A stretch of DNA of 64,000 nt from an uncultured Mageeibacillus sp. (GTDB lineage: Bacteria > Bacillota > Clostridia > Saccharofermentanales > UBA5734). Shown piece after piece: positions 6,957-59,053 of the stretch. Position 1 is the first letter of the stretch; the number at the start of each line of letters is the position of its first letter. The DNA lies in the NCBI GenBank assembly GCA_964528645.1, contig CAZGSR010000011.1, positions 405-64,404 on the forward strand, given 5' to 3'. The notes under the pieces were generated by a model, which ran no database searches, was not told where the DNA came from, and was given only the letters and a program-made list of their open reading frames with translations. Both the position numbers and the translations under genes were made by a program.

Positions 6957-7792
6957 TGCGGCTGAATCCCAAAATGACGCAAGTCCTGGCCAAAGCGCTG
7001 ATCTGGGGATCGGCTCTTCTGGTGATCGTCTTGCTGCTCTTCATTCTGCTTTTCGTCCTGATCAAAGGCTTGCCAACCTTGAGCTGGCAATTTTTGACCG
7101 AAAATCCCCGTGACATGGGTCGTTCAGGCGGAATTTTCTCGACCATCATCAGCACGATCCTGGTCACGCTCGTTTCTGTTGCAGTTGCCACACCGTTCGG
7201 CGTAGGAACGGCGCTGTATCTGACCGAATTCACACGCGAAGGCCTGGCGACTCGGATCATCCGTTTCAGTGCGGATACGCTGGCGGCGATTCCCTCGATC
7301 GTCTATGGCCTGTTCGGCTTCATCTTTTTTGTCATCAACCTGAACATGGGCTGGTCGATCCTGTCGGGCGGCCTGACGATGGCGATGATGATTTTGCCGA
7401 CGATCATCCGGACGGCAGAAGAAGCCATCCTCGCGATTCATCCGCTCTACCGCGAAGTCAGCTTTTCCCTCGGCGGCACCAAAATGCAGACCATCCTCGG
7501 CGCCGTCCTGCCTTCAGCTCTGCGCGGCATCATGACCGGTGTCATCTTGTCCATCGGCCGTTGTGTCGCCGAGACTGCGGCAGTCATTCTCACAGCTGGA
7601 TCGTCACTCAGACTACCGGAATCCGTTTTTTCACCCGCCCGGACCATGGCGGTACACTTCTACATCCTGGTTCGCGAGGGTATCTCCATGGAACGTGCTT
7701 ACGGCACAGCAGCGGCTCTGATCATCCTGATCCTGATCATTAATGTCGGAGCCAATATGCTGATCAATCGATTTGTGGCGAAAAACCACTGA
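6953..7792 (+). CDS. pstA: Phosphate ABC transporter permease PstA
   Basis: This 279-aa polytopic permease overlaps pstC by 4 nt and has the loop SFSLGGTKMQTILGAVLPSALRGI. Confidence 0.9.
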   Translation: MMRLNPKMTQVLAKALIWGSALLVIVLLLFILLFVLIKGLPTLSWQFLTENPRDMGRSGGIFSTIISTILVTLVSVAVATPFGVGTALYLTEFTREGLATRIIRFSADTLAAIPSIVYGLFGFIFFVINLNMGWSILSGGLTMAMMILPTIIRTAEEAILAIHPLYREVSFSLGGTKMQTILGAVLPSALRGIMTGVILSIGRCVAETAAVILTAGSSLRLPESVFSPARTMAVHFYILVREGISMERAYGTAAALIILILIINVGANMLINRFVAKNH

Positions 7793-37272: not shown

Positions 37273-37383
37273 TTCTTTGAAAAAATCCGCATGAATCCGC
37301 ACGGATCTTGTTGAAAGCCTTGAATGAATCGTCTTTTGACGGTACCTTAAGAAAAGACCATTTTCCCAAGGAGATCATTGACC

Positions 37384-38646
37384 ATGGATGTTCAAATTGT
37401 CGGTGGCGGCTGGTCCGGTTGCGCAGCAGCCATTGCCGCCAGGAAGCAGGGCGTATCCGTCACCTTGCATGAACGGACCGATTTGCTGCTCGGCACGGGA
37501 CTGGTGGGCGGCATCATGCGCAACAACGGTCGTTTCACTTCGACGGAAGAAGCCATCGCCCTCGGTGGTGGTGAATTGTTCGATATCACCGACCAGACTG
37601 CACGCCATCGCAACATCGAATTCCCCGGTCACAAGCATGCGACGCTTTATGACATATCGACCACACCGTCAGCCGTGACCGATTACCTGCTATCGATCGG
37701 GGTCAAGATCGTCTATCATTCCCGGATCGAGAAACTCGTCATGACCAACCAGACGATCCACGCCATCGGCTGCAAAAAGGGCAAAACCTATGCCGGTGAT
37801 GTCTTTGTCGATGCGACCGGCACCGCGGGACCGATGGCTAATTGCAAGAAATACGGCAATGGCTGTGCGATGTGCATCCTGCGTTGCCCGAGCTTTGGCG
37901 GACGTGTCAGCCTGACCGGCCTGGCTGGAGTGACTGAGCTGGTCGGCAAAAAAAGCAGTGGCGCCGTCGGTGCGATGAGTGGCTCCTGTAAATTATTTAA
38001 GGAATCCCTGTCGCCTGAGATCGTAGCTGAGCTCAATGAGAAAGGCGTCGCCCTTGTTCCCGTTCCCCAGAATCTGGTCGAGGATCATCTCGACATCAAA
38101 GCCTGCCAGCAATATGCCCTGGCTGAATTCCGCGACAACATTGTCCTTTTGGACACGGGTCACGCCAAACTGATGTCGCCCTATTTTGAAATCCACCGTC
38201 TGCAGCAGATCCCTGGCCTGGAAAAAGCCCGCTATGAGGATCCGTATTCTGGCGGCCAGGGCAATTCCATGCGCTTTTTTGCCATGGCTCCCCGCGACAA
38301 CACCCTTGCGGTCGAAGGCGTCAACAACTTGTTCTGCGCCGGCGAAAAGGCTGGCCTGCTGGTTGGCCACACCGAGGCCATCGTCACCGGTACCCTGGCT
38401 GGCTACAATGCCGCCCGAGTGGCTAAGGGACTCGAACCCATCGAGCTCCCCCGCAGCCTCGTGATCGGTGATGCGATCGCCTTTGTGCGCGAACAGATGC
38501 AGACTGAAAAGGGCCTCGGTTTGAAATACACCTTCTCAGGCTCGGTCCTGTTCGAGCGCATGCAGGAGCTTGGATCCTATACGACCGACATCCCCACGAT
38601 CCGCCAACGCGTCGAACAGGCAGGCCTAACCGGCGTTTTTGCGTAA
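37384..38646 (+). CDS. FAD-dependent oxidoreductase with GidA/TrmFO-like ends and an internal Cx6Cx2Cx3C cluster; function unknown
   Basis: The ATG at 37384 lies 9 nt after AAGGAGA. It has the dinucleotide motif VQIVGGGWSGCAAAIAA, the Cys cluster CKKYGNGCAMCILRC (37843-37887), and the C-terminal LFCAGEKAGLLVGHTEAIVTGTLAGYNAAR, which resembles GidA/TrmFO. Confidence 0.55.
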   Translation: MDVQIVGGGWSGCAAAIAARKQGVSVTLHERTDLLLGTGLVGGIMRNNGRFTSTEEAIALGGGELFDITDQTARHRNIEFPGHKHATLYDISTTPSAVTDYLLSIGVKIVYHSRIEKLVMTNQTIHAIGCKKGKTYAGDVFVDATGTAGPMANCKKYGNGCAMCILRCPSFGGRVSLTGLAGVTELVGKKSSGAVGAMSGSCKLFKESLSPEIVAELNEKGVALVPVPQNLVEDHLDIKACQQYALAEFRDNIVLLDTGHAKLMSPYFEIHRLQQIPGLEKARYEDPYSGGQGNSMRFFAMAPRDNTLAVEGVNNLFCAGEKAGLLVGHTEAIVTGTLAGYNAARVAKGLEPIELPRSLVIGDAIAFVREQMQTEKGLGLKYTFSGSVLFERMQELGSYTTDIPTIRQRVEQAGLTGVFA

Positions 38647-38667
38647 ATAGAACATTTGGAGGTTTCC

Positions 38668-40041
38668 ATGGCCACAATCGGTACCTTGCACCTCGTCTAC
38701 CTGGTGATGACTCTGTTGATCATCACAGCCCTACTGTTCAAAAAGGAGATTGTCCTGCCTTCTGTGGTCGGTATTTTCCTGATGGGCCTCTTTTTCACGG
38801 GTCATCCGATCAAAGCGATCCAGGTCCTGTACAATGCCCTGGTTGTGGCCGGTGGTGAATTCCTCGGTATCATCGTGGTCATTGCCCTGGTTGTCTCCAT
38901 GACCAAAACGCTGGCCACCATCGGCGCGGACGAGTTGATGATCCGGCCTTTGAAAAACGCCATTCACTCCAATAAAGTCGCTTTTTTCGTCGTCGGCGCG
39001 GTTATGCTGGTCGCCTCCTGGTTCATCTGGCCTTCTCCGGCTGTGGCCCTTGTCGGGGCGCTGCTTCTGCCTTTTGCCCTGCGCGCCGGTTTGCCGGCGA
39101 TCTGGGCTGCTGTTGCCATGAACCTGTTTGGCCACGGCATTGGCCTCTCGAGTGACTTTTTCATCCAGGGAGCCCCTTCAATCACCGCCAAATCAGCAGG
39201 CATTGGTCCGACCGATATCATGGTTGCCAGTGTACCGATCTGGCTTGTCATGTCGGTTGTCACCATTGCCGTCGCCTTTGTCATGTTCCTGCAAGATCTC
39301 AAGAAAAATCCGCAGATGGCTGTGGTTGACCTGGCCGCAACCGAATCCGAATCCAAAGTCAAAATCACGACTTTTTCCTATGTCATGGCTGTGGTCACAC
39401 CCCTGGCCTTCGTCCTCGACGTCTTTTTCATGATCACCCTCAACATCGTCGGTGGCGATGCCACCGCCCTGGTCGGTGGTACCGCGATCCTGATCATGAC
39501 CGCCATCCTGATCGGCAAGGGAGACCTGATGGATTCGCTCGATGAAATCACCGACAAATTCAAGGAAGGCTTCATCTTCGCCATCAAAATATTTGCTCCG
39601 GTCATTGTCATTGGCGGGTTCTTCTTCCTCGGCAGCGGTGAAATCGCCGCCAAGATCATGGGTGAAGGCGCCCCTAACATCCTCAATGACTATGGTATGT
39701 ACTTGGCTGGCATCGCACCGCTGGCCAAATTCCCGGTCGTCATCATCCAGGCTCTGATCGCTGTTGTCACCGGCCTCGATGGCTCCGGCTTCTCTGGTCT
39801 GCCCCTCGTCGGCTCACTCGCCCAGACCTTCTCCGTCGCCACCGGTGCCAACATCGCTTCACTGGCTGCTCTCGGCCAAGTCATCACCATCTGGGTCGGC
39901 GGCGGTACGATCATTCCCTGGGGTGTCATCCCTGTGGCAGCCATCTGCAATGTCAAACCCGCCGACCTCGCCCGCAAAAACCTCATCCCAGTCCTTTCCG
40001 GCCTCGCCGCCGCTGTCATCGTCACGATGTTTCTGGTGTAA
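38668..40041 (+). CDS. Polytopic membrane transporter of undetermined family
   Basis: The ATG at 38668 follows GGAGG. The ~457-aa protein is hydrophobic throughout, with at least 10 TM segments. I saw no motif I can assign to a family with confidence. Confidence 0.55.
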   Translation: MATIGTLHLVYLVMTLLIITALLFKKEIVLPSVVGIFLMGLFFTGHPIKAIQVLYNALVVAGGEFLGIIVVIALVVSMTKTLATIGADELMIRPLKNAIHSNKVAFFVVGAVMLVASWFIWPSPAVALVGALLLPFALRAGLPAIWAAVAMNLFGHGIGLSSDFFIQGAPSITAKSAGIGPTDIMVASVPIWLVMSVVTIAVAFVMFLQDLKKNPQMAVVDLAATESESKVKITTFSYVMAVVTPLAFVLDVFFMITLNIVGGDATALVGGTAILIMTAILIGKGDLMDSLDEITDKFKEGFIFAIKIFAPVIVIGGFFFLGSGEIAAKIMGEGAPNILNDYGMYLAGIAPLAKFPVVIIQALIAVVTGLDGSGFSGLPLVGSLAQTFSVATGANIASLAALGQVITIWVGGGTIIPWGVIPVAAICNVKPADLARKNLIPVLSGLAAAVIVTMFLV

Positions 40042-40215
40042 AAAAGACAACCAACCGCTTTGTAACATTTGTCCACTGAAATTGTCATGAATAATTAGCT
40101 TTTCTGTCACATGAATGTACGTCCAGTCGCTTTATGATGAATGTGACTGCATGGATCCGAGCCACTGCCCGTCTGCCGCCCTGGCAGGCTGGAGTGACGT
40201 TCCTGCCAGTTTGTC

Positions 40216-43200
40216 GTGTGGGCAAACTGGAGACGCGAAACGACTGGAGACAGAATTGTGAAAACTGAAAAGGAAGGTCTTGTTCCGGACAACGAAATTG
40301 ATCGCCTGTTTTGTCATCGGCAATACCCACTGACATATCCTCAAAGGGGGGTTTGGTATCTTGAGAAGATCAATCCAGATACCGGCATTGGCAATCTGGC
40401 GGTCACTTTGAAATTCAACCAAGTCATCGATTACACAACGGCAAATCAGGCTGTAAACTTGCTTCTGGCGCAAAATGAGGGATTCAGGACCAGGATCCGG
40501 GAAAATCCCGATGGCGAAGTCACGCAATATTTTGCTCCTTTTGAACCCTATGTCATGCCGCGCTTCGATTTTAGCCTGGTCGACAGAGAAATGCTTTACC
40601 AATGGGACCGGACGGAAGTTCGCCGGCCCTTTGAACTGGACCATAATCTATATTATTTTGCATATGTCAAAATCGACAGCCAGTCTTCTGCCTTGTTTAT
40701 GCGTTTTCATCATCTGATTGCCGATGCCTGGTCCTTTGTCCAGATCGGCAATGACCTGATGGCATTTTATGACCGGTTAAGTGATGGTCGGGGGGTCAGT
40801 GAACCGGAAAACCCACCCTACCGTGATTTCATCCAATCGGAACAATCGTATATCGGATCTGAACGGTATCACCTGGACAAGGAATTCTGGAGCAACCAGT
40901 TTTTGACTTTGCCGACTTTGACTACCTTGAAAACTCGTACATCAGAACGGATTGGTTTGACTGCCAAGCGGCGCAGCTATGCGTTACCGGAGAAGCTGAC
41001 CAGCAAGATCCGGGACTATTGTCATGAAAACCGGACTTCGATTTTTGCGCTGTTTTTTGCAGCCATGAGTATCTACATCAACCGGATCAAGGACCAGGAT
41101 GACATCGTGATCGGAACACCAGTCCTTAACCGTTCCAATGCCAGGGAAAAGCGGACGATCGGCATGTTTATCAGTACCGTTCCCTTGCGGATCAAAATTG
41201 ATCAGCACCTGACCTTTCAAGAATTCTCCCGCAAGCTAGATGCATCCTGGTTTTCTGTGCTCAAACATCAAAAATACCCTTACGACCTTCTCCTCCGTGA
41301 CGTCCGGGAATCTTTCCCTGATGTAGAGAAGCTTTTTGATATTGCCATCTCATACCAAAATGGCAAAATCAACCGCAGCCAGGAGGGCCTGGCAGGCAAC
41401 GCCGAGGTGCGCTGGCATTTCACAGAACACCAGACCGAAGCTTTGTATCTGCATATCAATGAGCGAGAAGGGGAGAGTCAGATTCTCCTCAATTATGATT
41501 ATCTGGTCGATCTATTCTACGCCAAAGAAATCGACTATATCCACGACCATATGCTGCGCTTGCTCTGGCATGCTCTGGATAATCCGCAACGACCGATCAG
41601 CCAGATCCATATGCTTTCCGAGAAGGAACGCTACAAGGTTTTGACCCTGTTTAACCAGACAAACGCCGAGTATCCGAGCAGCCAGACGGTGACCGGATTA
41701 TTTGAAGCCCAGGTCGATCGTTCGCCGCATTCTCCGGCAGTCGTCATCGGCAAAAAATCATACACGTATGATGTTGTGGATCAAATGGCTGAAAGGGTCG
41801 CCAGAGAACTCCGGCAGGCAGGTGCCAAGAGAGAATCAATTGTCGCTCTTTTTATGCAACCATCCTTGACCATGATTGTCTCTATCCTGGGCGTATTGAA
41901 GGCCGGTGCTGCTTATCTGCCCATCGATCCGGACTATCCGACCGAGCGGGTTTCATATATGCTGGAAAATTCTGGCGCCAGGATCCTTTTGCAAGGAACA
42001 CGTACAAGTAGTCCGACTGGATTTGATGGGACCATTCTCGATGCGTCCGCCATTGTGGCGAATGCATTACGCCAAAAAGCCAATGGATTGCGCTTGCCAA
42101 GGCAGAACTCACTCATTGAACCGTCGAATTTACTGTATGTTATCTATACTTCAGGATCGACTGGCCGCCCCAAAGGCGTCATGATTGAACACCGCAATGT
42201 TGTCCGGCTGCTCTTTAATGACCGTACACCGTTTGACTTTGGCCCGCAAGATTGCTGGACTTTGTTCCACTCGTATTGTTTTGATTTTTCGGTCTGGGAG
42301 ATGTATGGTGCACTTTTGTATGGCGGTCGTCTGGTCATTGTCCCTAAGCCAGTCGCCCGGGATACACAGGCTTTCCGCAAATTGCTGATTGATCAGCAAG
42401 TGACCGTTTTAAACCAGACGCCAGCTGCCTTTTACAACCTGGCGGACCAGGAAGTCCAGAAATCCGGTTCTGAGCTCTCTGTCCGCATGGTCATTTTTGG
42501 TGGAGACGCCTTGAAACCTCAGCTGCTCAGAGCCTTTCACGCTAAATATCCTCATGTGCGCCTGGTCAACATGTACGGAATTACGGAAACGACCGTCCAT
42601 GTCACCTATATTGATCTCAAAGACACTGACCTCCAAAATGGCACCTCCAATGTAGGACGACCCATTCCGACAATGCGTGTCTATATTCTGGACAAAAATC
42701 TCAATCCGATGCCGATAGGAGCTCCCGGTGAGATCTTTGTTAGCGGTGCTGGTGTAGGACGTGGCTATTTGAATAATCCTGAGCTGACAGCAGCCCGGTT
42801 CATGCCCAGCCCATTCGAACCAGGCGAAAAACTCTACCGGTCTGGCGACCTGGGCCGGTTCTTTCCAGAAGGCGATATCGAGTATCTGGGCCGGATCGAT
42901 CATCAGGTCAAAATCCGAGGACACCGGATCGAGCTGGGTGAAATCGAGTCAGCCATTCTCGAACACAACCGGATCAAATCCGCCCGGGTCCTGACAGTGG
43001 AAAACGGACAAGGCAATAAGCAGCTGATCGCCTACTTTGTGCCTGCGCAGCCGATCACCCTCCATGAGCTGCGGGCTTATCTGACCAAGCTGCTGCCGGA
43101 ATATATGATCCCAACGTTCTTTGTTGCCCTGGACCGGATTCCACTCAACAGCAATGGTAAAATCGCCCGGGAAAAATTGCCTGGCCCTGATTTTGACTTG

Positions 43201-44262
43201 GCGCTGGTAGCCGAATCGACACCGCCGGCCACCGAGCTCGAAATCAGGATCGTTGCAGCATTTTCGGAAGTCTTGGAATGCTCGGGAATCGGTCGTGAGG
43301 ACCACTTCTTCCGATTGGGTGGGGATTCACTGAGTGCAGCCAGGCTGGTTGCCATCCTTGGTGATCCGGTGACCTTTGCTGATTTGTACAGTCATCCAAC
43401 GGTCCGGGATCTGGCGCAATTCATGCTAAACCAGTGTTCAGACCGCCCGGGCAGCTTGCTGGTACTCCGTCAATCCTGCGCGCTGAAACACTTGGTCATA
43501 TTTCCCTATGCCGGTGGAACTGCTGCGACCTGTCTGGCCCTCAGCCAGCAAATCAGCCAGCTGACGGATGACCTGAATGTGATTGCGGTCAATTTGCCGG
43601 AGCAGCGTTTGCCACAACATGCGATGGCCGAGACAATTGCCCATGAACTGAAGCAGGAATTGATGGGTGAACTCTATATTTACAGCCATTGTGCTGGTTC
43701 CAGCCTGGCGATTGAAACCGCTCTGCTGCTGGAAAAGATGGGCCGTCCACCGGTTTCGGTTCTGGTCGGTGCCTCGTTACCGCCTTTTGCGTTCGCCTCG
43801 CACAAATCGATCGTCTCGCCGGTCGCTTTGATCCGGCAGGGTCTCAATCGTTTGCTGGCAAATCCCTGGCGTTACCTGAGCGATTCATCATTGCTGAAAA
43901 TCCTCTTGTCAATTGGTCTTCGCACTGGCGACATACAACCGGAGCAACAAGAAAATATGATCCGCTGGTTTCGCCAGGATGCGGCAGAATTTTACGACTT
44001 TTTCAACCGGAAACAGCACGAAGCTCGGCTGGATCCTGATTGCATGAGGTTGTCAGCGCCCATTCATTGCATCGTTGGCGACCAGGACCCTGTCACGATG
44101 GGGGCCAAACGACTGTATCAACGCTGGAATCGATTCTCAAACCAGGTGGATTTGACGATTATTCCGCAAGCTGGACATTATTTCCTCAGTGCCCAGGCCA
44201 GCGAACTGAGTCAATGGATTTTGCAGATCATTGACCGTACTGCCGGTGACCGGCATGATTAA
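40216..44262 (+). CDS. Single-module nonribosomal peptide synthetase, C-A-T-TE
   Basis: C domain: HHLIADAWS. A domain: LLYVIYTSGSTGRPKGV, NMYGITETT, YRSGDLGR, GRIDHQVKIRGHRIELGEIE and NGKIAREKL. T domain: FFRLGGDSLSAARL. TE domain: LVIFPYAGG, YIYSHCAGSS, IVGDQDP and QAGHYF. The likely true start is the GTG at 40258, 7 nt after GGAGA. Confidence 0.9.
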   Translation: MWANWRRETTGDRIVKTEKEGLVPDNEIDRLFCHRQYPLTYPQRGVWYLEKINPDTGIGNLAVTLKFNQVIDYTTANQAVNLLLAQNEGFRTRIRENPDGEVTQYFAPFEPYVMPRFDFSLVDREMLYQWDRTEVRRPFELDHNLYYFAYVKIDSQSSALFMRFHHLIADAWSFVQIGNDLMAFYDRLSDGRGVSEPENPPYRDFIQSEQSYIGSERYHLDKEFWSNQFLTLPTLTTLKTRTSERIGLTAKRRSYALPEKLTSKIRDYCHENRTSIFALFFAAMSIYINRIKDQDDIVIGTPVLNRSNAREKRTIGMFISTVPLRIKIDQHLTFQEFSRKLDASWFSVLKHQKYPYDLLLRDVRESFPDVEKLFDIAISYQNGKINRSQEGLAGNAEVRWHFTEHQTEALYLHINEREGESQILLNYDYLVDLFYAKEIDYIHDHMLRLLWHALDNPQRPISQIHMLSEKERYKVLTLFNQTNAEYPSSQTVTGLFEAQVDRSPHSPAVVIGKKSYTYDVVDQMAERVARELRQAGAKRESIVALFMQPSLTMIVSILGVLKAGAAYLPIDPDYPTERVSYMLENSGARILLQGTRTSSPTGFDGTILDASAIVANALRQKANGLRLPRQNSLIEPSNLLYVIYTSGSTGRPKGVMIEHRNVVRLLFNDRTPFDFGPQDCWTLFHSYCFDFSVWEMYGALLYGGRLVIVPKPVARDTQAFRKLLIDQQVTVLNQTPAAFYNLADQEVQKSGSELSVRMVIFGGDALKPQLLRAFHAKYPHVRLVNMYGITETTVHVTYIDLKDTDLQNGTSNVGRPIPTMRVYILDKNLNPMPIGAPGEIFVSGAGVGRGYLNNPELTAARFMPSPFEPGEKLYRSGDLGRFFPEGDIEYLGRIDHQVKIRGHRIELGEIESAILEHNRIKSARVLTVENGQGNKQLIAYFVPAQPITLHELRAYLTKLLPEYMIPTFFVALDRIPLNSNGKIAREKLPGPDFDLALVAESTPPATELEIRIVAAFSEVLECSGIGREDHFFRLGGDSLSAARLVAILGDPVTFADLYSHPTVRDLAQFMLNQCSDRPGSLLVLRQSCALKHLVIFPYAGGTAATCLALSQQISQLTDDLNVIAVNLPEQRLPQHAMAETIAHELKQELMGELYIYSHCAGSSLAIETALLLEKMGRPPVSVLVGASLPPFAFASHKSIVSPVALIRQGLNRLLANPWRYLSDSSLLKILLSIGLRTGDIQPEQQENMIRWFRQDAAEFYDFFNRKQHEARLDPDCMRLSAPIHCIVGDQDPVTMGAKRLYQRWNRFSNQVDLTIIPQAGHYFLSAQASELSQWILQIIDRTAGDRHD

Positions 44263-46141
44263 ATTACTGCTTAATCCAGATTTTGCACTCGTCCTGCTTT
44301 CGATCGCCTTCGTCGTATTTCTGTCGGTGATTGTCTGGCGGATGAAAAATAAGCAGCTGATCCATCACGTGTTCCTGGGCTTGATGGGCTGTCTGTTCAT
44401 CTGGGCCATCGGTGCGATGATCCTGCTGCGCGACAATCTCCTGGGCCATCCGATCCAGATCTGGGCAGTCAATTTCACATATATAGGCTTGATCCTAACC
44501 CCTGTTGCAGCCCTCTATGTAGGTGTGGTTTTTGCCCACAATACGGTCAAACTCAGTCCTTTCCACTTACTGACTCTATCCATACCGTTTCTGTCCCTGT
44601 TCTTGCTCTTTACCAATGAGTATCACCATGTATTCTATAAATTCTATGACTATGCACAGCTGACCTCAGCCAGTGCTCTGGGTTGGTATTTCGTTATCCA
44701 TACTGCCTATTCATACACATGCATTACCATTGGGCTTTCATTTCTGGCGTATTTTTCGATCAAGAATGCCGGTTTTTTCTCCAAGCAGTCTATTTTTATT
44801 CTGACAGGTGTCATACTCTCGTTTGGCTTCAATGCTGCTGTGACCTTCCAAGTCATTCCAGCCAGATTCCACTACACAGTCATTGTTTTATCTTTGTCTT
44901 GCATCTTTTTCTATTTCGCCATATTCAAATATGATTTTCTCAGCATTGTGCCAATCGCACTGCAAAGAGTGGTCGATCATATTTCCGACAGCTTCATGGT
45001 CTTCGATGCAAATGACAACCTGGTCGATTTTAACAAGACTTTCATTGACACGTTCCAGTCTGAGGCCAACATTACGCGAAAAATCACGATCGACACGCTG
45101 GCTGATCGAGTCCGAGGCAACCGCTCCATGTTCAATCTGCTGCGGAAATTCAGGGCCGTTGTTAAGCGACGCATGCGCCTGACCCTGGAAGAAACCCTGG
45201 ATATCAAAGGCCAGAAGCGCTTCTTTTCGATTGAAGTGACGCCTGTCTATAATCAGGGCCGTTTTATCAGCACCATTATTCTACTCAAAGACATCACAGA
45301 AATCCGGGAAGCGCTGGACTCACTGCGCCGCAATCATGAAATGCTGATGGAGAAGGAACGACTTGCTTCGCTGGGTCAATTGATTGGCGGCATTGCCCAC
45401 AATCTCAAGACTCCTATCATGTCGATCTCGGGTGGCATCGAAGGCCTCAAAGATTTGATTGAGGAGTATGAGGACTCGATTGGAGACAGCAGTGTAACGG
45501 CTGAAGACCATCATGAGATTGCTCGCGAGATGCTGGCATGGATTGACAAGATCCGGCCACATTGCACTTACATGTCAGATATCATCACAACCGTGAAAGG
45601 ACAAGCGGCTCAGTTTAATACATCGGACGAAATGACCTTCACTTTGAATGAACTGATCCATCGCGTAGAGTTGTTGATGAAACACGAACTTAAACGCTAT
45701 CACTGTGTGCTCAATATTCACCTCAAGTCCAGTAACATCATCGAATTGAAAGGTGAAATCAACAGCCTGGTCCAGATTTTCGACAACCTGATCATCAATG
45801 CCCTGCAATCCTATGAAGGACGCCAAGGTCAGCTAGACCTGACCATTGAAGAAAATGAGAACCAAATTATATTTATGCTCAAGGATTATGGCAGTGGAAT
45901 ATCACCCTCAGTCCGTGACAAATTGTTCAGAGAAATGGTGACCACAAAAGGTAAGCTCGGCACTGGCCTTGGACTATATATGTCTCACGCAACCATAAAA
46001 GGAAAATTTGGTGGTCGGATGTGGTTTGACAGTGAGCCAGGCAAAGGGACTTGTTTCTTTATAGAACTTCCACTGGCCCGTAGTTATCCAATACCCGCTT
46101 TGACAAGTACACAAAGAAATGGGGTGCCCCGTTATGCGTAA
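44255..46141 (+). CDS. Sensor histidine kinase with an N-terminal 7TM domain and a PAS-like domain
   Basis: The ATG at 44255 overlaps the NRPS stop (ATGATTAA). About 7 TM helices occupy the first ~230 aa, followed by the PAS-like VVDHISDSFMVFDANDNLVDFNKTF. It has the H-box LIGGIAHNLKTPI, the N-box FDNLIINALQS, G1 KDYGSGI and G2 GTGLGL. Confidence 0.85.
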   Translation: MIKLLLNPDFALVLLSIAFVVFLSVIVWRMKNKQLIHHVFLGLMGCLFIWAIGAMILLRDNLLGHPIQIWAVNFTYIGLILTPVAALYVGVVFAHNTVKLSPFHLLTLSIPFLSLFLLFTNEYHHVFYKFYDYAQLTSASALGWYFVIHTAYSYTCITIGLSFLAYFSIKNAGFFSKQSIFILTGVILSFGFNAAVTFQVIPARFHYTVIVLSLSCIFFYFAIFKYDFLSIVPIALQRVVDHISDSFMVFDANDNLVDFNKTFIDTFQSEANITRKITIDTLADRVRGNRSMFNLLRKFRAVVKRRMRLTLEETLDIKGQKRFFSIEVTPVYNQGRFISTIILLKDITEIREALDSLRRNHEMLMEKERLASLGQLIGGIAHNLKTPIMSISGGIEGLKDLIEEYEDSIGDSSVTAEDHHEIAREMLAWIDKIRPHCTYMSDIITTVKGQAAQFNTSDEMTFTLNELIHRVELLMKHELKRYHCVLNIHLKSSNIIELKGEINSLVQIFDNLIINALQSYEGRQGQLDLTIEENENQIIFMLKDYGSGISPSVRDKLFREMVTTKGKLGTGLGLYMSHATIKGKFGGRMWFDSEPGKGTCFFIELPLARSYPIPALTSTQRNGVPRYA

Positions 46142-47714
46142 GCGCAAACAAAATGAAATGTCAAATTTCCGGATCATTGTCGTGGATGATGAGTTCGGTA
46201 TCATCGATTCGCTCTCGGTTGTCCTGAACCGGGGTGGCTATGAGACGGTTGGTGAAACCGATCCTCTGAAAGCAATCGAGCGGATCAAACACGAGCATTT
46301 TGACTTGCTGATCCTGGACTACCTGATGTTCCCGTTGCATGGCGACGAGGTGGTTGAACAGATCCGGATGTTCAACAAAGAGCTGTACATCTTGCTCTTG
46401 ACCGGTCATCGTGATCTGGCGCCGCCGCTGGAAACGATCCGGGCTCTCGATATACAAGGTTATTGCGAAAAGAGCGACAAATTTGACCAGCTGATCCTCC
46501 TGGTCGAGTCCGGCATCAAATCGATCACCATGTTACAGATGATCAAGAAATTCCAGGAAGGACTCAACAAGATCCTCCAGGCGGTGCCCAAGATCTACCA
46601 GCTCCAGCCACTGGGCAGCATTCTGGAAGACATCTTGTCCGAGCTGCTGCCACTGGTCAACAGTGAACATGCCTTTATTCTGGTGGATGATGTCACAGGC
46701 CCGAATGCCGATAAGAAAAGCATTTTCAAAGGGATCGGCCGCTATCACCAGGACGTGGATGTGTTTGTTGACATGCTCCAGCCCAGTTTGATGGAAGAGA
46801 TCGGTTATGCGCGTCTCAACCAGAAGATCGTCCATTTTGACGAAGGTGTCATTTTGCCGCTGAACAATGAACTGATGCAGTCGATCGGGGTGATCTATGT
46901 CGAGAGTCTCGATTTTGGAAATTCACAACTGGATGATGGCATCAAACTGCTGGAAATATATGCTGGCCAGGCGGCTTCGTCGCTGAGCAATGCTTTCCTG
47001 CACTCGATGGTCCACATGAAAAACGAGGAGCTGAACCGTACGTATGACCAGCTCAGGAACGGCTACATGGACACAATCGAGGCGCTGCGCCTGGCGGTCG
47101 ATGCCAAGGATATCTACACCCGGGGCCATTCCGACCGCGTCTCCTATTTTGCAACCCTGATCGGCAAGGCTATGAACCTGCCGCAGGACCAGATTGAACT
47201 GCTGCGGATCAGTGGTTTTTTCCATGATGTTGGCAAGATTGGGACCGGTGACGATATTCTGGCCAAAACAGACCGCCTGAACGATGCCGAATACGAGGAA
47301 GTGAAGAAGCACCCGCTCAAGGGCGCCCAGATTCTATCGGCTGTCTTCATGTTCAAGCAGGTGGTACCGATCGTCCAGTATCACCACGAGCGGATCGATG
47401 GCATGGGTTATCCTCATGGCCTCAGAGGTGAGCAGATCCCGTTCCTGGCCAGGATCATATCCGTTGTTGATGCTTTCGACGCCATGACATCGGATCGTCA
47501 ATATCGCTCGCGCATGGATGTCGAACATGCCAAGAACCAGCTCGTCCAAGGCAGAGGGACCCAGTTCGACAGCCAGGTGGTCGATGTGTTCCTCGGCTTG
47601 CTGGAACGCTATGAAGACATTTTGGCGGACATGGCTGTGTTGAACATCGGCGGCCACGACCCCTACAACCTCACCTTGAGCGCGCCCGTTGCCGAACCAT
47701 TGTCGGCTTCATGA
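46134..47714 (+). CDS. Response regulator with REC, a central GAF-like region and an HD-GYP (c-di-GMP phosphodiesterase type) output
   Basis: The ATG at 46134 overlaps the kinase stop (ATGCGTAA); alternative starts are at 46119 and 46158. REC motifs: IIVVDDE, DLLILDYLMFP and LLLTGH. HD-GYP motifs: HSDRVS, FFHDVGKI and HHERIDGMGYPHGL. There is no DNA-binding domain. Confidence 0.85.
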   Translation: MRKRKQNEMSNFRIIVVDDEFGIIDSLSVVLNRGGYETVGETDPLKAIERIKHEHFDLLILDYLMFPLHGDEVVEQIRMFNKELYILLLTGHRDLAPPLETIRALDIQGYCEKSDKFDQLILLVESGIKSITMLQMIKKFQEGLNKILQAVPKIYQLQPLGSILEDILSELLPLVNSEHAFILVDDVTGPNADKKSIFKGIGRYHQDVDVFVDMLQPSLMEEIGYARLNQKIVHFDEGVILPLNNELMQSIGVIYVESLDFGNSQLDDGIKLLEIYAGQAASSLSNAFLHSMVHMKNEELNRTYDQLRNGYMDTIEALRLAVDAKDIYTRGHSDRVSYFATLIGKAMNLPQDQIELLRISGFFHDVGKIGTGDDILAKTDRLNDAEYEEVKKHPLKGAQILSAVFMFKQVVPIVQYHHERIDGMGYPHGLRGEQIPFLARIISVVDAFDAMTSDRQYRSRMDVEHAKNQLVQGRGTQFDSQVVDVFLGLLERYEDILADMAVLNIGGHDPYNLTLSAPVAEPLSAS

Positions 47715-47801: not shown

Positions 47802-48707
47802 ATGGGTATGTTAACAGACAAGCGACTGAATCAGGCTTATCAGTCAGCCAAAGTCCTGGAGTTTGATGAAACGTCCCGCCTGATCTTCTTTTCCGACTGC
47901 CATCGAGGCGATAACAGCCTGTCCGATGAGTTTGCCCGCAACCAGGCCATCTACCAGTACGCGATGGCCTACTATTATTACAACGGCTACACCTATGTCG
48001 AGGCCGGTGACGGCGATGAACTGTGGGAATATGCCCATTTCAAACATATCCGGATTGCCCACAGCGATATTTTCCATACCCTGCAGCACTTCCATGAAGA
48101 AGACCGCATGATCATGCTGTACGGCAACCACAACATGAGTCTTAAGAATAAAGACTATGTCAGGAAAAACCTCCATTACTATTTTGATGAATACAATGAT
48201 GAGGAAACAGTCCTGTTCGAAAATCTGGAGCCCTGTGAGGCTCTGGTTTTGCGTCACCGTGAGACGGGACAAGAAATCCTGACCGTACATGGCCACCAGG
48301 GTGACCTGATGAATGACCAGCTCTGGGTTGTCTCCATGCTGATGATGCGCTATTTTTGGCGCCTGATGCACATCGTCGGTTTCCAGAATCCCTCCAGCCC
48401 TGCCAAAAATGCCCACAAGCGACATAAGATTGAAAAAATGTACAATCGCTGGATTTCTGCCAACCGGAAAATGCTGATCTGTGGCCATACACACCGACCC
48501 AAATTCCCCAAAAGCTCCGACCTGCCCTATTTCAATACCGGGTGCTGCATCCACGCCCGGGGCATCACTGGCATCGAGATATTCGAAGGCAAGATCATGC
48601 TCGTCGAATGGCGGGTCCGCGCCGACAAGGAGGGCAGTCTGCACATCTCGAGGAAAATCATCCGAGGCCCAGAGCCGGTCAGTCGGTATGACAACATATG
48701 GAAATGA
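47802..48707 (+). CDS. Calcineurin-like metallophosphoesterase
   Basis: The motif series is FFSDCHRGD, AGDGDELWE, LYGNHN, VHGHQGD and CGHTHRP. Confidence 0.75.
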   Translation: MGMLTDKRLNQAYQSAKVLEFDETSRLIFFSDCHRGDNSLSDEFARNQAIYQYAMAYYYYNGYTYVEAGDGDELWEYAHFKHIRIAHSDIFHTLQHFHEEDRMIMLYGNHNMSLKNKDYVRKNLHYYFDEYNDEETVLFENLEPCEALVLRHRETGQEILTVHGHQGDLMNDQLWVVSMLMMRYFWRLMHIVGFQNPSSPAKNAHKRHKIEKMYNRWISANRKMLICGHTHRPKFPKSSDLPYFNTGCCIHARGITGIEIFEGKIMLVEWRVRADKEGSLHISRKIIRGPEPVSRYDNIWK

Positions 48708-55199: not shown

Positions 55200-55793
55200 A
55201 TGGAATTACTTTTGATCCGCCATGGACTGACCAAGGCCAATCTTGAACGCCGTTTCTGTGGCCTGACCGACTGGCCTGTGCTGCCAGAAGCCCTGCTGTC
55301 TCTCGACCAGATGGTTCTTACGGGGGTCATGCCACCGGTTGAGGTCGTTTGCCATACAGGCCTTCTGCGAACAATCCAGACCGCTGAGCACCTGTTTCCG
55401 GGCATTCCCATGCAGCCTGTTCCCAGACTCGCTGAGTTTGATTTTGGCGATTTTGAAACATTATCCCATGAAGAGCTGCAAGATAATCCGGTATATGTTC
55501 GCTGGCTGGCCGATTTCGAAACGCTGGCCTGCCCGAATGGTGAAAGCCAGCGCGATTTTGTGGCCCGGATTCGACAAGGCTGGCTGGAACTGGCCTCTGA
55601 CTGGACGGGAAAAACTATTGAAAAAGCCGCCCTGGTGACCCATGGCGGCGTGATCGCAGTGCTGATGAACGACTGGTTCCCCGGTGACCAGGACCTGCTA
55701 GACTGGCAACCGGCTTGTGGGTCAGGCTATCGGGTCAGTTTTTCGGCTGGACATCCGAAGCTGGTTGAATCATTCGGCGCCAGAATGATTTGA
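55200..55793 (+). CDS. cobC: Alpha-ribazole phosphatase-type histidine phosphatase CobC
   Basis: It has the RHG motif LLIRHGLTKAN and a later LVTHGGVI. It is the last gene of the cob cluster. Confidence 0.75.
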   Translation: MELLLIRHGLTKANLERRFCGLTDWPVLPEALLSLDQMVLTGVMPPVEVVCHTGLLRTIQTAEHLFPGIPMQPVPRLAEFDFGDFETLSHEELQDNPVYVRWLADFETLACPNGESQRDFVARIRQGWLELASDWTGKTIEKAALVTHGGVIAVLMNDWFPGDQDLLDWQPACGSGYRVSFSAGHPKLVESFGARMI

Positions 55794-56424
55794 CTTCCTT
55801 TCGGCTGGCCAGCGGGATGACTTCGATCGCATCAATTTCCAGTTCCTTCATGGAATAAATCTTGAACCGGTGCTGCTTATAGGAAACCTCCAGGCCTGTG
55901 AATGGCTTGAGGCCCTCCTCACGGATCAGATGCAGGACCAGGTCGCGGGCTGAACGTCCACCATCGTCCGGGGTGAATTTCGTACCCAGGATGGCATTCA
56001 TTTCGCCCAGCGTGGTGTTGGCTTCGATGATGACCCCGTTCGGGTCGGTCTTCTGGGCAAAATAGCGCTTGACGATCAGCAGGGCACAAATTGCCACGAC
56101 ACCGAGGACGATTTCGTAATATTTGGGTTCGTCGATGGCAATCTTGCGGGCGATGATGAAAAACAGGACTTCGATGGTGCTTTCCGGTGTGTGCTTGGAG
56201 ATCATCTTGACAAACTCGACAGCGATGATCAGTTCAATCACGTGCTTGAGGAAGGGCTGGATGTCAAATGTATAGATACGATGGGTGATGTCCCAGAAAT
56301 GGCCGTATAAGCTGACCAGAATCTCAATACCAGCCAGCAGGACGGCTAGGATGATCAACCCGGACAGGGCGATTTCCAAGTAAGAAGCGATGCGGCTGAC
56401 ACGGCTGCGAAAGTATTGTTTCAT
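55735..56424 (-). CDS. PsiE-like four-TM membrane domain fused to a C-terminal soluble domain
   Basis: The N-terminal ~130 aa contain IELIIAVEFVKMI and FFIIARKIAI, as in PsiE-family proteins. The C-terminal ~100 aa are soluble and of unclear family. Its 3' end overlaps cobC by 59 nt. Confidence 0.45.
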   Translation of the reverse strand: MKQYFRSRVSRIASYLEIALSGLIILAVLLAGIEILVSLYGHFWDITHRIYTFDIQPFLKHVIELIIAVEFVKMISKHTPESTIEVLFFIIARKIAIDEPKYYEIVLGVVAICALLIVKRYFAQKTDPNGVIIEANTTLGEMNAILGTKFTPDDGGRSARDLVLHLIREEGLKPFTGLEVSYKQHRFKIYSMKELEIDAIEVIPLASRKEVKSFWRRMIQPASDVQPKN

Positions 56425-56725: not shown

Positions 56726-57895
56726 TCAATATCGCATCAGGGCGACGGCATCAGCACCGTCAGGGATCTGGTCCGGATCGATGGAGTGCACCTGTGCCCC
56801 GTTCGACAACGCCCGGATCGCGGCGAATTCGAGCAAGTCCTGATGTTCGAAAGGGTTGGCCGGATTTCCCGGCTGGGGACGGCTGATTTCGCGTGTTTCC
56901 GGTACGAAACGGCCAGGGAGTGTTTTACCGCGTGGGATGAAAAGCTTGTCGACCCGTCCGTGATCTGCCGCCTCGATGATCTGGCGGATGTTCTGGCGGA
57001 TCCGGTCGCTGCCAAAGAAGTTCTGGGCATTCGTCCAGTCCTGGCTGGCGTGATCAGGCAGATGAGCCTGAACGACCGCCCAAGCCCTGTCCCGGAGCTC
57101 TGTTTCGGTGAGGTGGTCAGGTGAACCGGGGATGTTCACTGGCAGCAAATTGGGATTTTTACTCACCTTTTGGAAAACGGCAAACAGATAATCAACACTG
57201 GCCAGGACCAGGGGCAGATTTTCTTTTTGCCAATGTTCGAGGATCTTGCCATCGACAGCCCGGCAATAGTCCTCAACCATCAGGCGGTCGCGATCTTTGC
57301 TGTTTTCAAAACCATGGCTGACAGCACCTGCGACAGCACCATGGTTCGATCCAGCCGCGCCACCGTACTGCCGCCGTTGCTTTTCGAACGAATAAGCTGA
57401 GACAATGGTTTCCAGTGACTCCGGCAGATCCTGGACTGGGATCTGGATCAGGCGATTTTTGCTGCCGCGATAGACTCGGACGGCCCCTCGGCCAATGGCC
57501 AGCAACAGATATTCTGCGTTCAGGACATCCAGCTCGAGCAAGGGGCGCACCGTGAAATGATCATCGATGACTATGTTTTCATCCACTGGCTGTTCCAGCG
57601 AAAAAATCACAGACTGGTTGTCGCTCATGAACATAGCCAGGGCTTCAGGGGCGACCGCCCAGAAGAGCGGTTGTTCCAGGAGCTCACTGGCCGGTTTGAG
57701 GATGTTCTGGATTTTGGGGACAGTCAGGCCATTGCCTTTGAGGTGGTCCTCGGCCTGACGCAACAAGGTGCGAAGGCGGATCTGGGACATCTTGACATCG
57801 TTGCCTTCACGCAGGATTGGCAGATAGATGGAAACACAGGGGAATTCCTGGATCGAAACCAGGGTTTGCAATGTATCGCGGTCAAAACGTAGCAT
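56726..57895 (-). CDS. Bacterial archaeo-eukaryotic release factor-like (eRF1/Pelota fold, baeRF-type) protein
   Basis: The ATG at 57895 lies 7 nt after GGAGA; the ORF-track start at 57940 has no SD. The central segment FEKQRRQYGGAAGSNHG...DRDRLMVEDYCRAVDGKI parallels the eRF1 M-domain segment KKHGRGGQS...EKRHNYVRKVAE. The C-terminus ...IIEAADHGRVDKLFI...DLLEFAAIRALSNGAQVHSI...GADAVALMRY parallels eRF1 domain 3, which ends in ...AILRY. Confidence 0.45.
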   Translation of the reverse strand: MLRFDRDTLQTLVSIQEFPCVSIYLPILREGNDVKMSQIRLRTLLRQAEDHLKGNGLTVPKIQNILKPASELLEQPLFWAVAPEALAMFMSDNQSVIFSLEQPVDENIVIDDHFTVRPLLELDVLNAEYLLLAIGRGAVRVYRGSKNRLIQIPVQDLPESLETIVSAYSFEKQRRQYGGAAGSNHGAVAGAVSHGFENSKDRDRLMVEDYCRAVDGKILEHWQKENLPLVLASVDYLFAVFQKVSKNPNLLPVNIPGSPDHLTETELRDRAWAVVQAHLPDHASQDWTNAQNFFGSDRIRQNIRQIIEAADHGRVDKLFIPRGKTLPGRFVPETREISRPQPGNPANPFEHQDLLEFAAIRALSNGAQVHSIDPDQIPDGADAVALMRY

Positions 57896-58048
57896 AGCAT
57901 CATCTCCATTCTTCTCGCTGCAGCAAAGCTCTAATTTCATTATACATCTTCGTTCTGGAAAAAACTGAATGGATTATGGTTACTTTAATTCATTGAAGCC
58001 CAGCAAGTTTCCATGATACAGTTAATAAAAGCCAGGGAGGTCGTTGCC

Positions 58049-59053
58049 ATGGAATTTCAGACTGAAAGGATGTCCCTCCAGCTGGCAGACAGGGTCGATT
58101 CTCTGATGGAGCCTGTGCCCTCGAGCCTGCCAGAACTAAACAAGCAAAACCAAATTTTCGGCTTGATCTTGAGCGATCCGAAAATTGCCCGGCAAGAGCT
58201 GGCGATTTTTCCGCTTTGCCTTGATTTGGCTCGGCGCAAAGCCCGGGCTGGAGGTCTTGAGCAGGGGGCGCTTTTTTGTGGGCTCGACCCGAAAAAGCAT
58301 CCCTGCCATCCAGATGATCCCCCAGAGACTCCGCTCCGCCTACTGCCGAGTTTCAGCTTGTCCCAATTGATGATCGATTACTACCGGACCAGCCTTGACT
58401 TCCAGTTCCTGCTTTCAGGCGGGGCGGATGTGATCTTCGAGACCGCACGTCTGTGGCGGTCGGTCCAGAAGCCAGGCACGGCTTACGATGTCAGCGAATG
58501 GCCAGCCTTAGAACCCCTCATCCAGCTCAATTTGCACTGGACAAGCCGGATCTGGTCGATGCTGGAACGTGCCGGAAAGCAGCAGGGTGTGGCAGCACGG
58601 CTTGGCTTATCTGAGCAGGAGGTCCACCAATTGGCCGAATTACTCATGCCGCTGCCAGAAAAGACTATGTTCAGAGACAAATCCAGTCAAATACAAGAGG
58701 CTGCAGACATATTGTCAGGTCTGGTTCACACTGGCCACAACCTGTCATCTGAAACTTGGCACAGCGGTGTTGAAGCGGGCTTTCTTGCTATCCTGGCAAC
58801 ACAGATCGCCCGCCTCGTAATCGATGGGGAAGAGCTCTCATTTTCGCCTGTTTTACCGCTTGGTTGGCAGGGATATACCCTGCGCCTAACCTTCAGGGGC
58901 AGCAAATTCGACGTTCAGATCACAGGCTCGACAGGCAAGCTGACCCTGACCGAAGGTTCTGCTATTCCCGTTATTGTCTACGGTCTGGAGTACATGCTTG
59001 AAGATGAATTTGAATTTGACCTTGTGAAAAATGAGGCTTTTCCTGATGAATGA
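58049..59053 (+). CDS. Degenerate, shortened GH65-like (glycoside phosphorylase family) protein
   Basis: The ATG at 58049 lies 8 nt after GGGAGG. DYYRTSLDFQFLLSGGADVIFETARLWRS matches the GH65 ETARFW region. The C-terminus EAGFLAILATQIARLVIDGEELSFSPVLPLGWQGYTLRLTFRGSKFDVQI matches the GH65 C-terminal sandwich. The catalytic GPDEY region and about half of the usual length are missing. Confidence 0.4.
   Translation: MEFQTERMSLQLADRVDSLMEPVPSSLPELNKQNQIFGLILSDPKIARQELAIFPLCLDLARRKARAGGLEQGALFCGLDPKKHPCHPDDPPETPLRLLPSFSLSQLMIDYYRTSLDFQFLLSGGADVIFETARLWRSVQKPGTAYDVSEWPALEPLIQLNLHWTSRIWSMLERAGKQQGVAARLGLSEQEVHQLAELLMPLPEKTMFRDKSSQIQEAADILSGLVHTGHNLSSETWHSGVEAGFLAILATQIARLVIDGEELSFSPVLPLGWQGYTLRLTFRGSKFDVQITGSTGKLTLTEGSAIPVIVYGLEYMLEDEFEFDLVKNEAFPDE

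Follow-up and report, generated by a model that had tools for sequence, protein, structure and literature searches.

What does a small nonribosomal peptide synthetase (NRPS) have to do with a membrane-bound sensor histidine kinase and a response regulator that ends in an HD-GYP domain? The question is raised by contig CAZGSR010000011.1 from an uncultured Mageeibacillus sp., of which a stretch of 64,000 nucleotides was analysed as a whole and is called the window here. In the window, the NRPS gene overlaps the kinase gene and the kinase gene overlaps the regulator gene. Recurrence of the three genes throughout Clostridia makes it very probable that NRPS, kinase and regulator form one functional unit. 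On comparison with known systems, the cassette, which is widespread in Clostridia, is best read as a circuit of the Rpf/diffusible signal factor (DSF) kind with the NRPS as signal synthase. It would be self-signalling, such that the kinase senses the NRPS product and phosphorylation then activates hydrolysis of a cyclic dinucleotide. For this whole chain we estimate a probability of about 0.45. The three genes and their characteristic motifs are located as follows.

40258–44262, + strand: NRPS of a single module with condensation (C), adenylation (A), thiolation (T) and thioesterase (TE) domains, C-A(Thr)-T-TE (Pfam, Stachelhaus code, PDB matches)
40708–40728, + strand: NRPS C-domain motif HHLIADA
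43327–43329, + strand: NRPS carrier Ser
43690–43692 (Cys), 44086–44088 (Asp) and 44176–44178 (His), + strand: putative triad of the NRPS TE domain
44255–46141, + strand: sensor histidine kinase of 628 amino acids (Pfam, hydropathy, box residues)
44612–44629, + strand: kinase sensor motif TNEYHH
45398–45400, + strand: kinase phospho-acceptor His382 (IAHNLKTP)
46134–47714, + strand: response regulator REC-DUF3369(GAF-like)-HD-GYP of 526 amino acids (Pfam, PDB matches, AlphaFold/Foldseek)
46317–46319, + strand: regulator phospho-acceptor Asp62
47223–47228, + strand: regulator HD
47382–47414, + strand: regulator HHERIDGMGYP

Both 8-nt start/stop overlaps described in an earlier note on this DNA are present. 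At ATGATTAA the NRPS stop codon TAA (44260–44262) overlaps the kinase ATG (44255–44257), and at ATGCGTAA the kinase stop codon TAA (46139–46141) overlaps the regulator ATG (46134–46136). Other in-frame starts are possible at TTG 44231 for the kinase and at ATG 46119 for the regulator. ATG 44255 was preferred because it gives the length of 628 amino acids found in relatives with 91% and 89% identity, and ATG 46134 because the regulator of the gene callers has 526 amino acids; its NCBI label is just 'DUF3369 domain-containing protein'. The longest NRPS reading frame begins at GTG 40216, and gene callers choose GTG 40258, which gives a protein of 1334 amino acids. The exact length of the overlaps was rejected as a special feature, since relatives keep the tight spacing and not the exact 8 nt. 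For L005, L009, L008 and L006, four related loci, the values are −8, −4, +1 and +15 nt between NRPS and kinase and −14, −8, −4 and +145 nt between kinase and regulator.

Conservation of the trio was surveyed from three sides. When contigs from one genome per species were scanned with kinase-core motifs and the flanks annotated by BLAST, 80 loci were obtained. A kinase of at least 32% identity is encoded in 64 of them, all from Bacillota or Clostridia, and 61 of these loci have enough upstream sequence to be testable. In 55 of the 61 testable Clostridia loci, an NRPS reading frame runs up to the kinase start. A REC-HD-GYP regulator is found in the flank of 47 of these 55 NRPS-linked loci, 44 times directly downstream on the same strand. 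Neither an NRPS nor a regulator partner accompanies the distant kinases at 16 loci from cyanobacteria, Bacteroidota and proteobacteria. Kinase homologues are numerous in Clostridia, and four of them (55–68% identity) were traced to long contigs; the order NRPS-kinase-regulator is kept in all four, with wholly different flanking genes. In the reverse survey, metagenome contigs were seeded on the TE motif G[ED][LI]x[LFI]Y[SG]HC[AV] alone, which returned nine loci. The kinase lies immediately downstream in six of the seven loci with a TE identity of at least 29%, followed by the regulator where the contig goes on. Sampling seeded on the regulator recovered the cassette in the cultured Dehalobacter sp. 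DCM and in another metagenome-assembled genome (MAG), plus one orphan paralogue. In the complete genome of Dehalobacter sp. DCM (CP092282.1), a DDE transposase gene (5686–7128 of locus L100) is located between NRPS and kinase. A related contig has the regulator directly after the kinase; it begins within the kinase, so that the NRPS junction is out of view. All-against-all clustering of the flanking reading frames left NRPS, kinase and regulator as the only genes that recur family-wide. A phosphopantetheinyl transferase recurs in 10 loci, and the remaining recurrent neighbours, Tex, ABC-F and CorA, are housekeeping genes syntenic within one large gut clade.

The earlier note had proposed one tightly coupled operon, a view now strongly supported at the level of one functional unit by a trio that is kept amid unrelated flanks and is found again from the TE alone. 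The same note had suggested looking for co-occurrence of NRPS, kinase and HD-GYP regulator, which indeed adjoin each other widely. As the trio recurs in both the kinase-seeded and the TE-seeded survey, the opposite finding it had envisaged, homologous NRPS genes never adjacent to the pair, is clearly not the case.

The NRPS comprises Condensation, AMP-binding, PP-binding and Thioesterase domains by Pfam. It thus terminates in a thioesterase domain and not in a reductase (R, NAD_binding_4). The Stachelhaus code of the A domain, DFWNIGMVH, stands for Thr and agrees with the acyl-Thr product guessed before; what had been overlooked is the resemblance of the TE to the cysteine thioesterase of ObiF. 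The C domain is N-terminal without an upstream carrier, from which we infer an acyl donor supplied in trans. Its position would make it a 'starter' type; PDB matches were ambiguous as a test of this call, elongation-type and starter C domains scoring equally. ObiF1 (6n8e) and SulM (8w2d) are the top two solved relatives of the T-TE region, with the Cys aligned. The window TE sequence YSHCAGS matches YGHCAGN of ObiF1 with the Cys in the G-x-C-x-G position, and D1291 (GDQDPVT) and H1321 (GHYF) align with GGQDPLT and GGHYF of ObiF1 in the sequence alignment. Cys, Asp and His are invariant across six TE-type cassette relatives.

Searching a word-indexed protein database with the T-TE region gave nine short, uninformative matches, and an exhaustive search of representatives was used instead. 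The cysteine-thioesterase clade delineated in this way has 301 representatives (50% identity level, E ≤ 1e-10; representative proteins P0313–P0461), and 140 of the 145 best have the Cys. Many members are proteins of ~1800 amino acids with ~470–510 residues beyond the TE and look ObiF-like. A further code, DLTKIAHVS, recurs in A domains upstream of such TEs; no amino acid was assigned to it. Ser/Thr codes account for ~44 of the 92 upstream A domains across the whole clade. Within the cassette family, the Thr code (DFWN[IV]GMVH) is present in the TE-adjacent module of every locus of the TE(Cys) type, and this rule extends to two-module members whose kinases are 38–39% identical to that of the window. 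Among described NRPS thioesterases, ObiF1 and SulM alone combine a nucleophilic Cys with an Asp that has moved to the loop after strand β7, and both close four-membered rings via attack of a β-substituent (PMC6668435, PMC11298585). The window TE falls into this cysteine clade of ObiF and SulM, and TEs of its type are preceded by a Thr module throughout the family; the predicted product is hence an N-acyl-L-threonine β-lactone.

The kinase belongs to the HisKA_7TM family (PF16927; 110.6 bits against a cutoff of 28.6, residues 13–233), and hydropathy indicates a polytopic membrane sensor with six to seven hydrophobic or transmembrane (TM) segments. The architecture 7TM-PAS-HisKA-HATPase suggested before holds for the 7TM and HATPase_c (72.7 bits) parts. 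The matches to PAS_4 (22.4 bits, cutoff 23.1) and HisKA (24.7 bits, cutoff 26.9) fall just below the Pfam cutoffs, and the region between sensor and core is a PAS-like linker. H382, N511, the G1 box DYGSGI and the G2 box GTGLGL are present and invariant across 17 relatives. By Pfam, the kinase has no REC or HPt domain and ends after HATPase_c. Among 45 members with a HisKA_7TM-type sensor, 13 of 240 sensor positions are conserved to at least 90%, the TNxxHH motif included. Conserved polar residues of the sensor are few (among them T120, N121, H124, H125 and Y154), and the sensor is wholly membrane-embedded.

The regulator shows Pfam matches to Response_reg (52 bits against a cutoff of 30.2), DUF3369 and HD_5/HD. 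Both FFHDVGK (47217–47237) and HHERIDGMGYP were found as described before. In all 38 relatives compared, the REC residues D18, D19, D62, T90 and K113 are unchanged, and so are the HD-GYP ligands H332, H364, D365, H393, H417, H418, E419 and D422 as well as G423, G425, Y426, P427 and D446. Pfam detects no DNA-binding domain. Together with the invariant residues, this supports at the sequence level the view of the earlier note that the output is second-messenger turnover and not transcription. That note recognised the HD-GYP domain; it overlooked the middle domain and alternative substrates. Profile comparison links the DUF3369 region weakly with a GAF domain and with the PmGH N-terminal domain. 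An AlphaFold model of the regulator (pLDDT 71) matches PmGH over ~390 columns and a REC-GAF kinase in Foldseek, and we read the architecture as REC-GAF-like-HD-GYP. Sequence matches in the PDB are 5z7c, 4mcw, 4r8z and 9rbz. The best solved relatives of the HD-GYP domain are V-cGAP3 (5z7c), a phosphodiesterase for 3′3′-cyclic GMP-AMP (cGAMP), and PmGH (4mcw), a phosphodiesterase for cyclic di-GMP (c-di-GMP). A Tyr of the regulator, which V-cGAP3 has too, aligns with the Glu of the PmGH motif DPETQNH. In PmGH, this Glu binds the third metal. The catalytic signature of the proposed c-di-GMP phosphodiesterase is thus intact, and c-di-GMP is the likely substrate, yet an unproven and not the sole possible one because the top PDB match acts on cGAMP.

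Comparison of the loci revealed a marked difference between the parts that diversify and those that stay conserved. The window and its closest relatives have the layout C-A-T-TE; most others are C-A-T-R or C-A-T-C-A-T-R, and a reductase end is found in 51 of the 55 NRPS-linked survey loci. A two-module NRPS with an ordinary serine thioesterase (GFSAG) is encoded at locus L102 (1–7096). Three release chemistries (R, Cys-TE and Ser-TE) are hence paired with the same kinase and regulator, and 64 loci carry 47 distinct tuples of A-domain Stachelhaus codes. The kinase sensor has a mean pairwise identity of 23%, compared with 56% for the core made up of the phosphotransfer and catalytic (DHp/CA) domains. 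One clade (L044–L061, L072, L089 and L090, for example L045 6738–8777), with single-module C-A-T-R synthetases and kinases of ~660–680 amino acids, has the sensor swapped: a different polytopic domain replaces HisKA_7TM, leaving 9% identity to the window in the sensor and 57% in the core. The substitute consists of five TM segments, a loop of ~110 amino acids and one further TM segment, has no similarity to HisKA_7TM and precedes a core ~55% identical to that of the window. Regulators of this clade lack DUF3369. Overall, the regulator is the most conserved component, with 65–88% identity in the best 120 clusters. Sensors of kinases next to NRPSs with the same A code are more alike than their core identity predicts (residual +0.24 to +0.27; permutation p ~2–4e-4 in two sub-groups).

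How could the cassette work? NRPS, kinase and regulator, whose frames overlap or abut, would be expressed from a single transcription unit. Judging from the domain chemistry, the C domain would transfer an acyl group from a donor provided in trans to L-threonine on the carrier, and the cysteine thioesterase would release the product, most likely N-acyl-threonine β-lactone; in relatives, the reductase domain would release N-acyl amino or dipeptide aldehydes. The lipophilic product would enter the membrane, where the matching polytopic kinase sensor would detect it, be it in the producer itself or in neighbouring cells. The kinase would then phosphorylate Asp62 of the regulator and activate the HD-GYP domain, as its intact catalytic residues suggest, so that the level of c-di-GMP or a related cyclic dinucleotide falls. 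The GAF-like middle domain may provide a second input. The readout would be a shift in second-messenger level and not direct transcription. Product sensing by the kinase is favoured because the arrangement is Rpf/DSF-like and because NRPS and sensor, both hypervariable, seem to diversify jointly beside a conserved transmitter core and regulator.

Several observations weigh against this reading. The first concern the link between synthetase and sensor. The association of sensor and A code fails to reach significance in the TE sub-group (p = 0.12), and the test is suggestive only, since it is confounded by relatedness and possibly by a non-linear relation of sensor to core. Thr-specific NRPSs also occur with unrelated sensors, as in the window compared with L044 and L045 (9% sensor identity). 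Moreover, membrane domains commonly diverge fast anyway. An NRPS is missing at 6 of the 61 testable kinase loci. The contig that carries L005 (ERZ25039462 contig_26601) also encodes an orphan paralogue of the window regulator (REC-DUF3369-HD-GYP, 68% identity) with neither an NRPS nor a HisKA_7TM kinase beside it. In L005 itself, a hybrid kinase and another REC-HD-GYP protein are encoded 2–5 kb downstream of the cassette. As to the product, about half of the members of the Cys-TE clade follow A codes for non-hydroxy residues. As to the output, 3′3′-cGAMP phosphodiesterase is the top PDB match of the HD-GYP domain, and a regulator without DNA-binding domain leaves no obvious autoinduction loop. 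Feedback on the NRPS through RNA was sought as well and rejected: Rfam searches of the window (gathering threshold), of the 400-nt leader (E ≤ 1) and of seven relatives yielded no c-di-GMP riboswitch or other known element ahead of the NRPS. Finally, products of related reductase-type NRPSs from the gut are reported to be protease-inhibiting dipeptide aldehydes (PMC12327764), which suggests an outward-directed function.

A bolder version of the self-signalling reading is doubtful. According to it, the cassettes of Clostridia, many gut species among them, would be private chemical languages in which the NRPS electrophile of each lineage, an N-acyl amino acid or dipeptide in aldehyde or β-lactone form, is the ligand of a co-evolving polytopic kinase, possibly captured covalently, with c-di-GMP degradation by the REC-GAF-HD-GYP regulator as sole output. 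If this were true, the 'protease-inhibitor' NRPS products of the gut, whose native role has long been debated, would natively be signals between cells or to the producer itself, and the window variant would be the first β-lactone autoinducer.

The alternative that survives best, though still rather unlikely, inverts the direction of the circuit. Here the two-component pair is an input to the NRPS and not its readout: the kinase reads an external or host cue, and the regulator alters c-di-GMP, which governs how the metabolite is made, exported or used. Two-component systems are frequent within biosynthetic gene clusters, and the unrelated sensors beside Thr-specific NRPSs fit such cluster-situated regulation. 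The dipeptide aldehydes of the reductase-type relatives, for which an outward function is proposed (PMC12327764), can be cited in its favour too. In conflict with it, the regulator has no DNA-binding output, and the region ahead of the NRPS has no Rfam match, to a c-di-GMP riboswitch or otherwise, in the window and the seven relatives. In addition, kinase and regulator lie downstream of the NRPS and are coupled to its frame, and would therefore be made with the NRPS, not before it. A cue unrelated to the product also fails to account for a sensor that has become as diverse as the NRPS.

Less probable again is a role in self-protection or damage sensing. In this case, the kinase would detect perturbation of membrane or envelope, or covalent modification, and lower c-di-GMP for immunity or homeostasis and not for communication. 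An effect of the product on the membrane had already been allowed for in the earlier note, and the electrophilic warheads predicted here (β-lactone or aldehyde) as well as a sensor that lies wholly within the membrane and has few conserved polar residues are in line with such a function. A candidate promoter upstream of the NRPS, which we take to resemble those of extracytoplasmic function (ECF) sigma factors of the SigX/SigM type, would suit envelope-stress control. It consists of the motif TGTAAC-N16-TGTC ~170 nt upstream of the NRPS start; the general form TGTAA[CT]-N16-TGTC has a background rate of 0.024 per 460 nt and is found upstream of the NRPS in the window (40061–40086), L005 (5884), L008 (6009) and L009 (6013). 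The motif is missing from the wider family and limited to the sub-clade of the window. Generic sensing of membrane stress, however, requires no diversification or swap of the sensor alongside NRPS specificity, and no resistance-type gene (hydrolase or target duplicate) is conserved in the cassette. A merely fortuitous neighbourhood, in which NRPS and two-component pair are independent and adjacent by shared ancestry, is hardly credible, for despite the Tex/ABC-F/CorA synteny of one large gut clade, which attributes some of the conservation to vertical inheritance, adjacency is kept in 55 of 61 species amid flanks that are entirely different, outlasts exchange of module number, release domain and sensor domain, is recovered by the independent TE-seeded search and comes with abutting or overlapping frames in most loci.

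Around the trio, three further features of the window deserve mention.

40061–40086, + strand: candidate promoter motif TGTAAC-N16-TGTC (same motif 5′ of the NRPS in L005, L008 and L009)
47802–48707, + strand: metallophosphoesterase (weak Pfam matches to Metallophos and Metallophos_2)
59031–60737: GGDEF protein with 1+6 predicted TM segments

The leader of ~170 nt between promoter motif and NRPS contains an extra GC-rich inverted repeat in the window that is not present in L005 or L009. The metallophosphoesterase gene after the regulator and the 7TM GGDEF gene ~11 kb downstream are both where the earlier note had placed them. The former is an accessory fourth gene of the sub-clade to which the window belongs: it follows the regulator in L001–L005, L009–L010 and L091 and is missing from this place in L006, L008 and the wider family. 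It has no informative match in PDB, NCBIfam or PADLOC. From the NRPS through the metallophosphoesterase the GC content is 50%, compared with 56% in the flanks; in most relatives, the GC content of the cassette follows that of the host. The GGDEF gene, which had been linked to the cassette, was ruled out as part of it, since unrelated genes on both strands intervene and it recurs in one close relative only (L009).

Upstream of the cassette, a GIDA/TrmFO-like FAD oxidoreductase gene (37378–38646, + strand) precedes a gene for a 461-amino-acid protein (38656–40041, + strand) with ~13 predicted TM segments and no Pfam or NCBIfam match. The pair is found at ~80% identity upstream of the L005 cassette. 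Both genes were rejected as cassette members, as they occur only in the nearest relatives (L001–L005 and L091) and have a flank-like GC content. A function in anti-phage defence was discarded likewise, PADLOC yielding just a trivial HD match. Further downstream lie a gene for a membrane protein with PsiE/CorC_HlyC domains (55735–56424, − strand) and, adjoining it, one for a bacterial archaeo-eukaryotic release-factor-like protein (56726–57940, − strand; baeRF family 3, 6 or 7). A reading frame of 346 amino acids (58013–59053, + strand) covers no more than the C-terminal portion of a GH65 glycoside hydrolase and may be a gene remnant; its end overlaps the GGDEF start at 59031. At L011, a T-box leader (339–585; RF00230, 111.8 bits) is located before the gene that precedes the cassette and is unrelated to the latter.

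Known systems resemble the cassette in single parts. The window NRPS shares with ObiF1 (obafluorin) and SulM (sulfazecin) the layout C-A-T-TE, Cys, His and Asp residues that align in sequence and an A domain that picks a β-hydroxy amino acid. Unlike them, it has no MbtH-like, aryl carrier or aryl-A domain by Pfam. Moreover, its C domain is only a weak match and not ObiF-like, its substrate is plain Thr, and its host belongs to the Clostridia. No pair of kinase and HD-GYP regulator is reported to be coupled to ObiF or SulM. Should the product prediction be true, the window variant would bring the rare ObiF-like cysteine-TE release chemistry to a new phylum and to an anaerobe.

Most relatives of the cassette, with their C-A-T-R or C-A-T-C-A-T-R synthetases, recall the dipeptide-aldehyde or pyrazinone NRPSs of gut Clostridia (ruminopeptin rup; family of Guo et al. 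2017). Their sources are MAGs of gut Clostridia as well as isolates, for instance Clostridium sp. CAG:273 and CAG:508, and in architecture and habitat they agree with published dipeptide-aldehyde producers (PMC12327764). As it ends in a Cys-TE and not in a reductase, the window NRPS itself differs from rup-type enzymes and is not a member of the reductase-type family. The products of such small clostridial NRPS clusters have so far been discussed mainly as inhibitors of host proteases. If true, signalling would provide a testable native function for these clusters, which are abundant in gut and anaerobic-digester Clostridia.

Small NRPS-derived molecules that act as self-signals and alter group behaviour are known from the Pvf system of Pseudomonas with its NRPS PvfC (PMC10194917) and from myxobacterial coralinone (PMC10979478). 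In contrast to the cassette, these accounts describe no dedicated pair of kinase and HD-GYP receptor with the synthetase. We found no description of an NRPS-kinase-HD-GYP cassette in the full-text literature searched; the primary gut-NRPS papers may mention one. Similar to agr and com loci, the cassette unites a biosynthesis gene and a kinase as its putative receptor in one operon and places a hypervariable membrane sensor beside a conserved core. In agr-type loci, signal and sensor diversify together next to a conserved transmitter. Unlike in agr and com, the signal of the cassette would be non-ribosomal and lipidic, and the output is a phosphodiesterase instead of LytTR or another DNA-binding domain. 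Matched pairs of synthase and receptor with dozens of specificities might be useful for deorphanising ligands and as orthogonal sensor parts.

RpfC, the sensor kinase of the Rpf/DSF system of Xanthomonas, is a hybrid kinase with C-terminal REC and HPt domains. The closest parallel to the proposed circuit is this system, in which the synthase RpfF, the kinase RpfC and the REC-HD-GYP regulator RpfG are clustered, a lipophilic signal is detected by an input domain associated with the membrane, and phosphorylation activates c-di-GMP degradation in place of DNA binding (PMC8042644). The cassette likewise groups the gene for a synthase with those for a membrane-bound sensor kinase and, next to the latter, a REC-HD-GYP regulator. 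It differs in that the synthase is an NRPS and not a crotonase, the sensor is HisKA_7TM, the regulator has an extra GAF-like DUF3369 region and the hosts are Gram-positive anaerobes; synthase and sensor have no sequence-level orthology to those of Rpf. There is no crotonase in the cassette or among its conserved neighbours. With neither a crotonase as synthase nor a hybrid kinase, the cassette falls outside the Rpf system. If the kinase indeed reads the NRPS product, it would instead represent a widespread Gram-positive counterpart of DSF/Rpf, in which a lipo-amino acid or lipopeptide is wired to c-di-GMP turnover.

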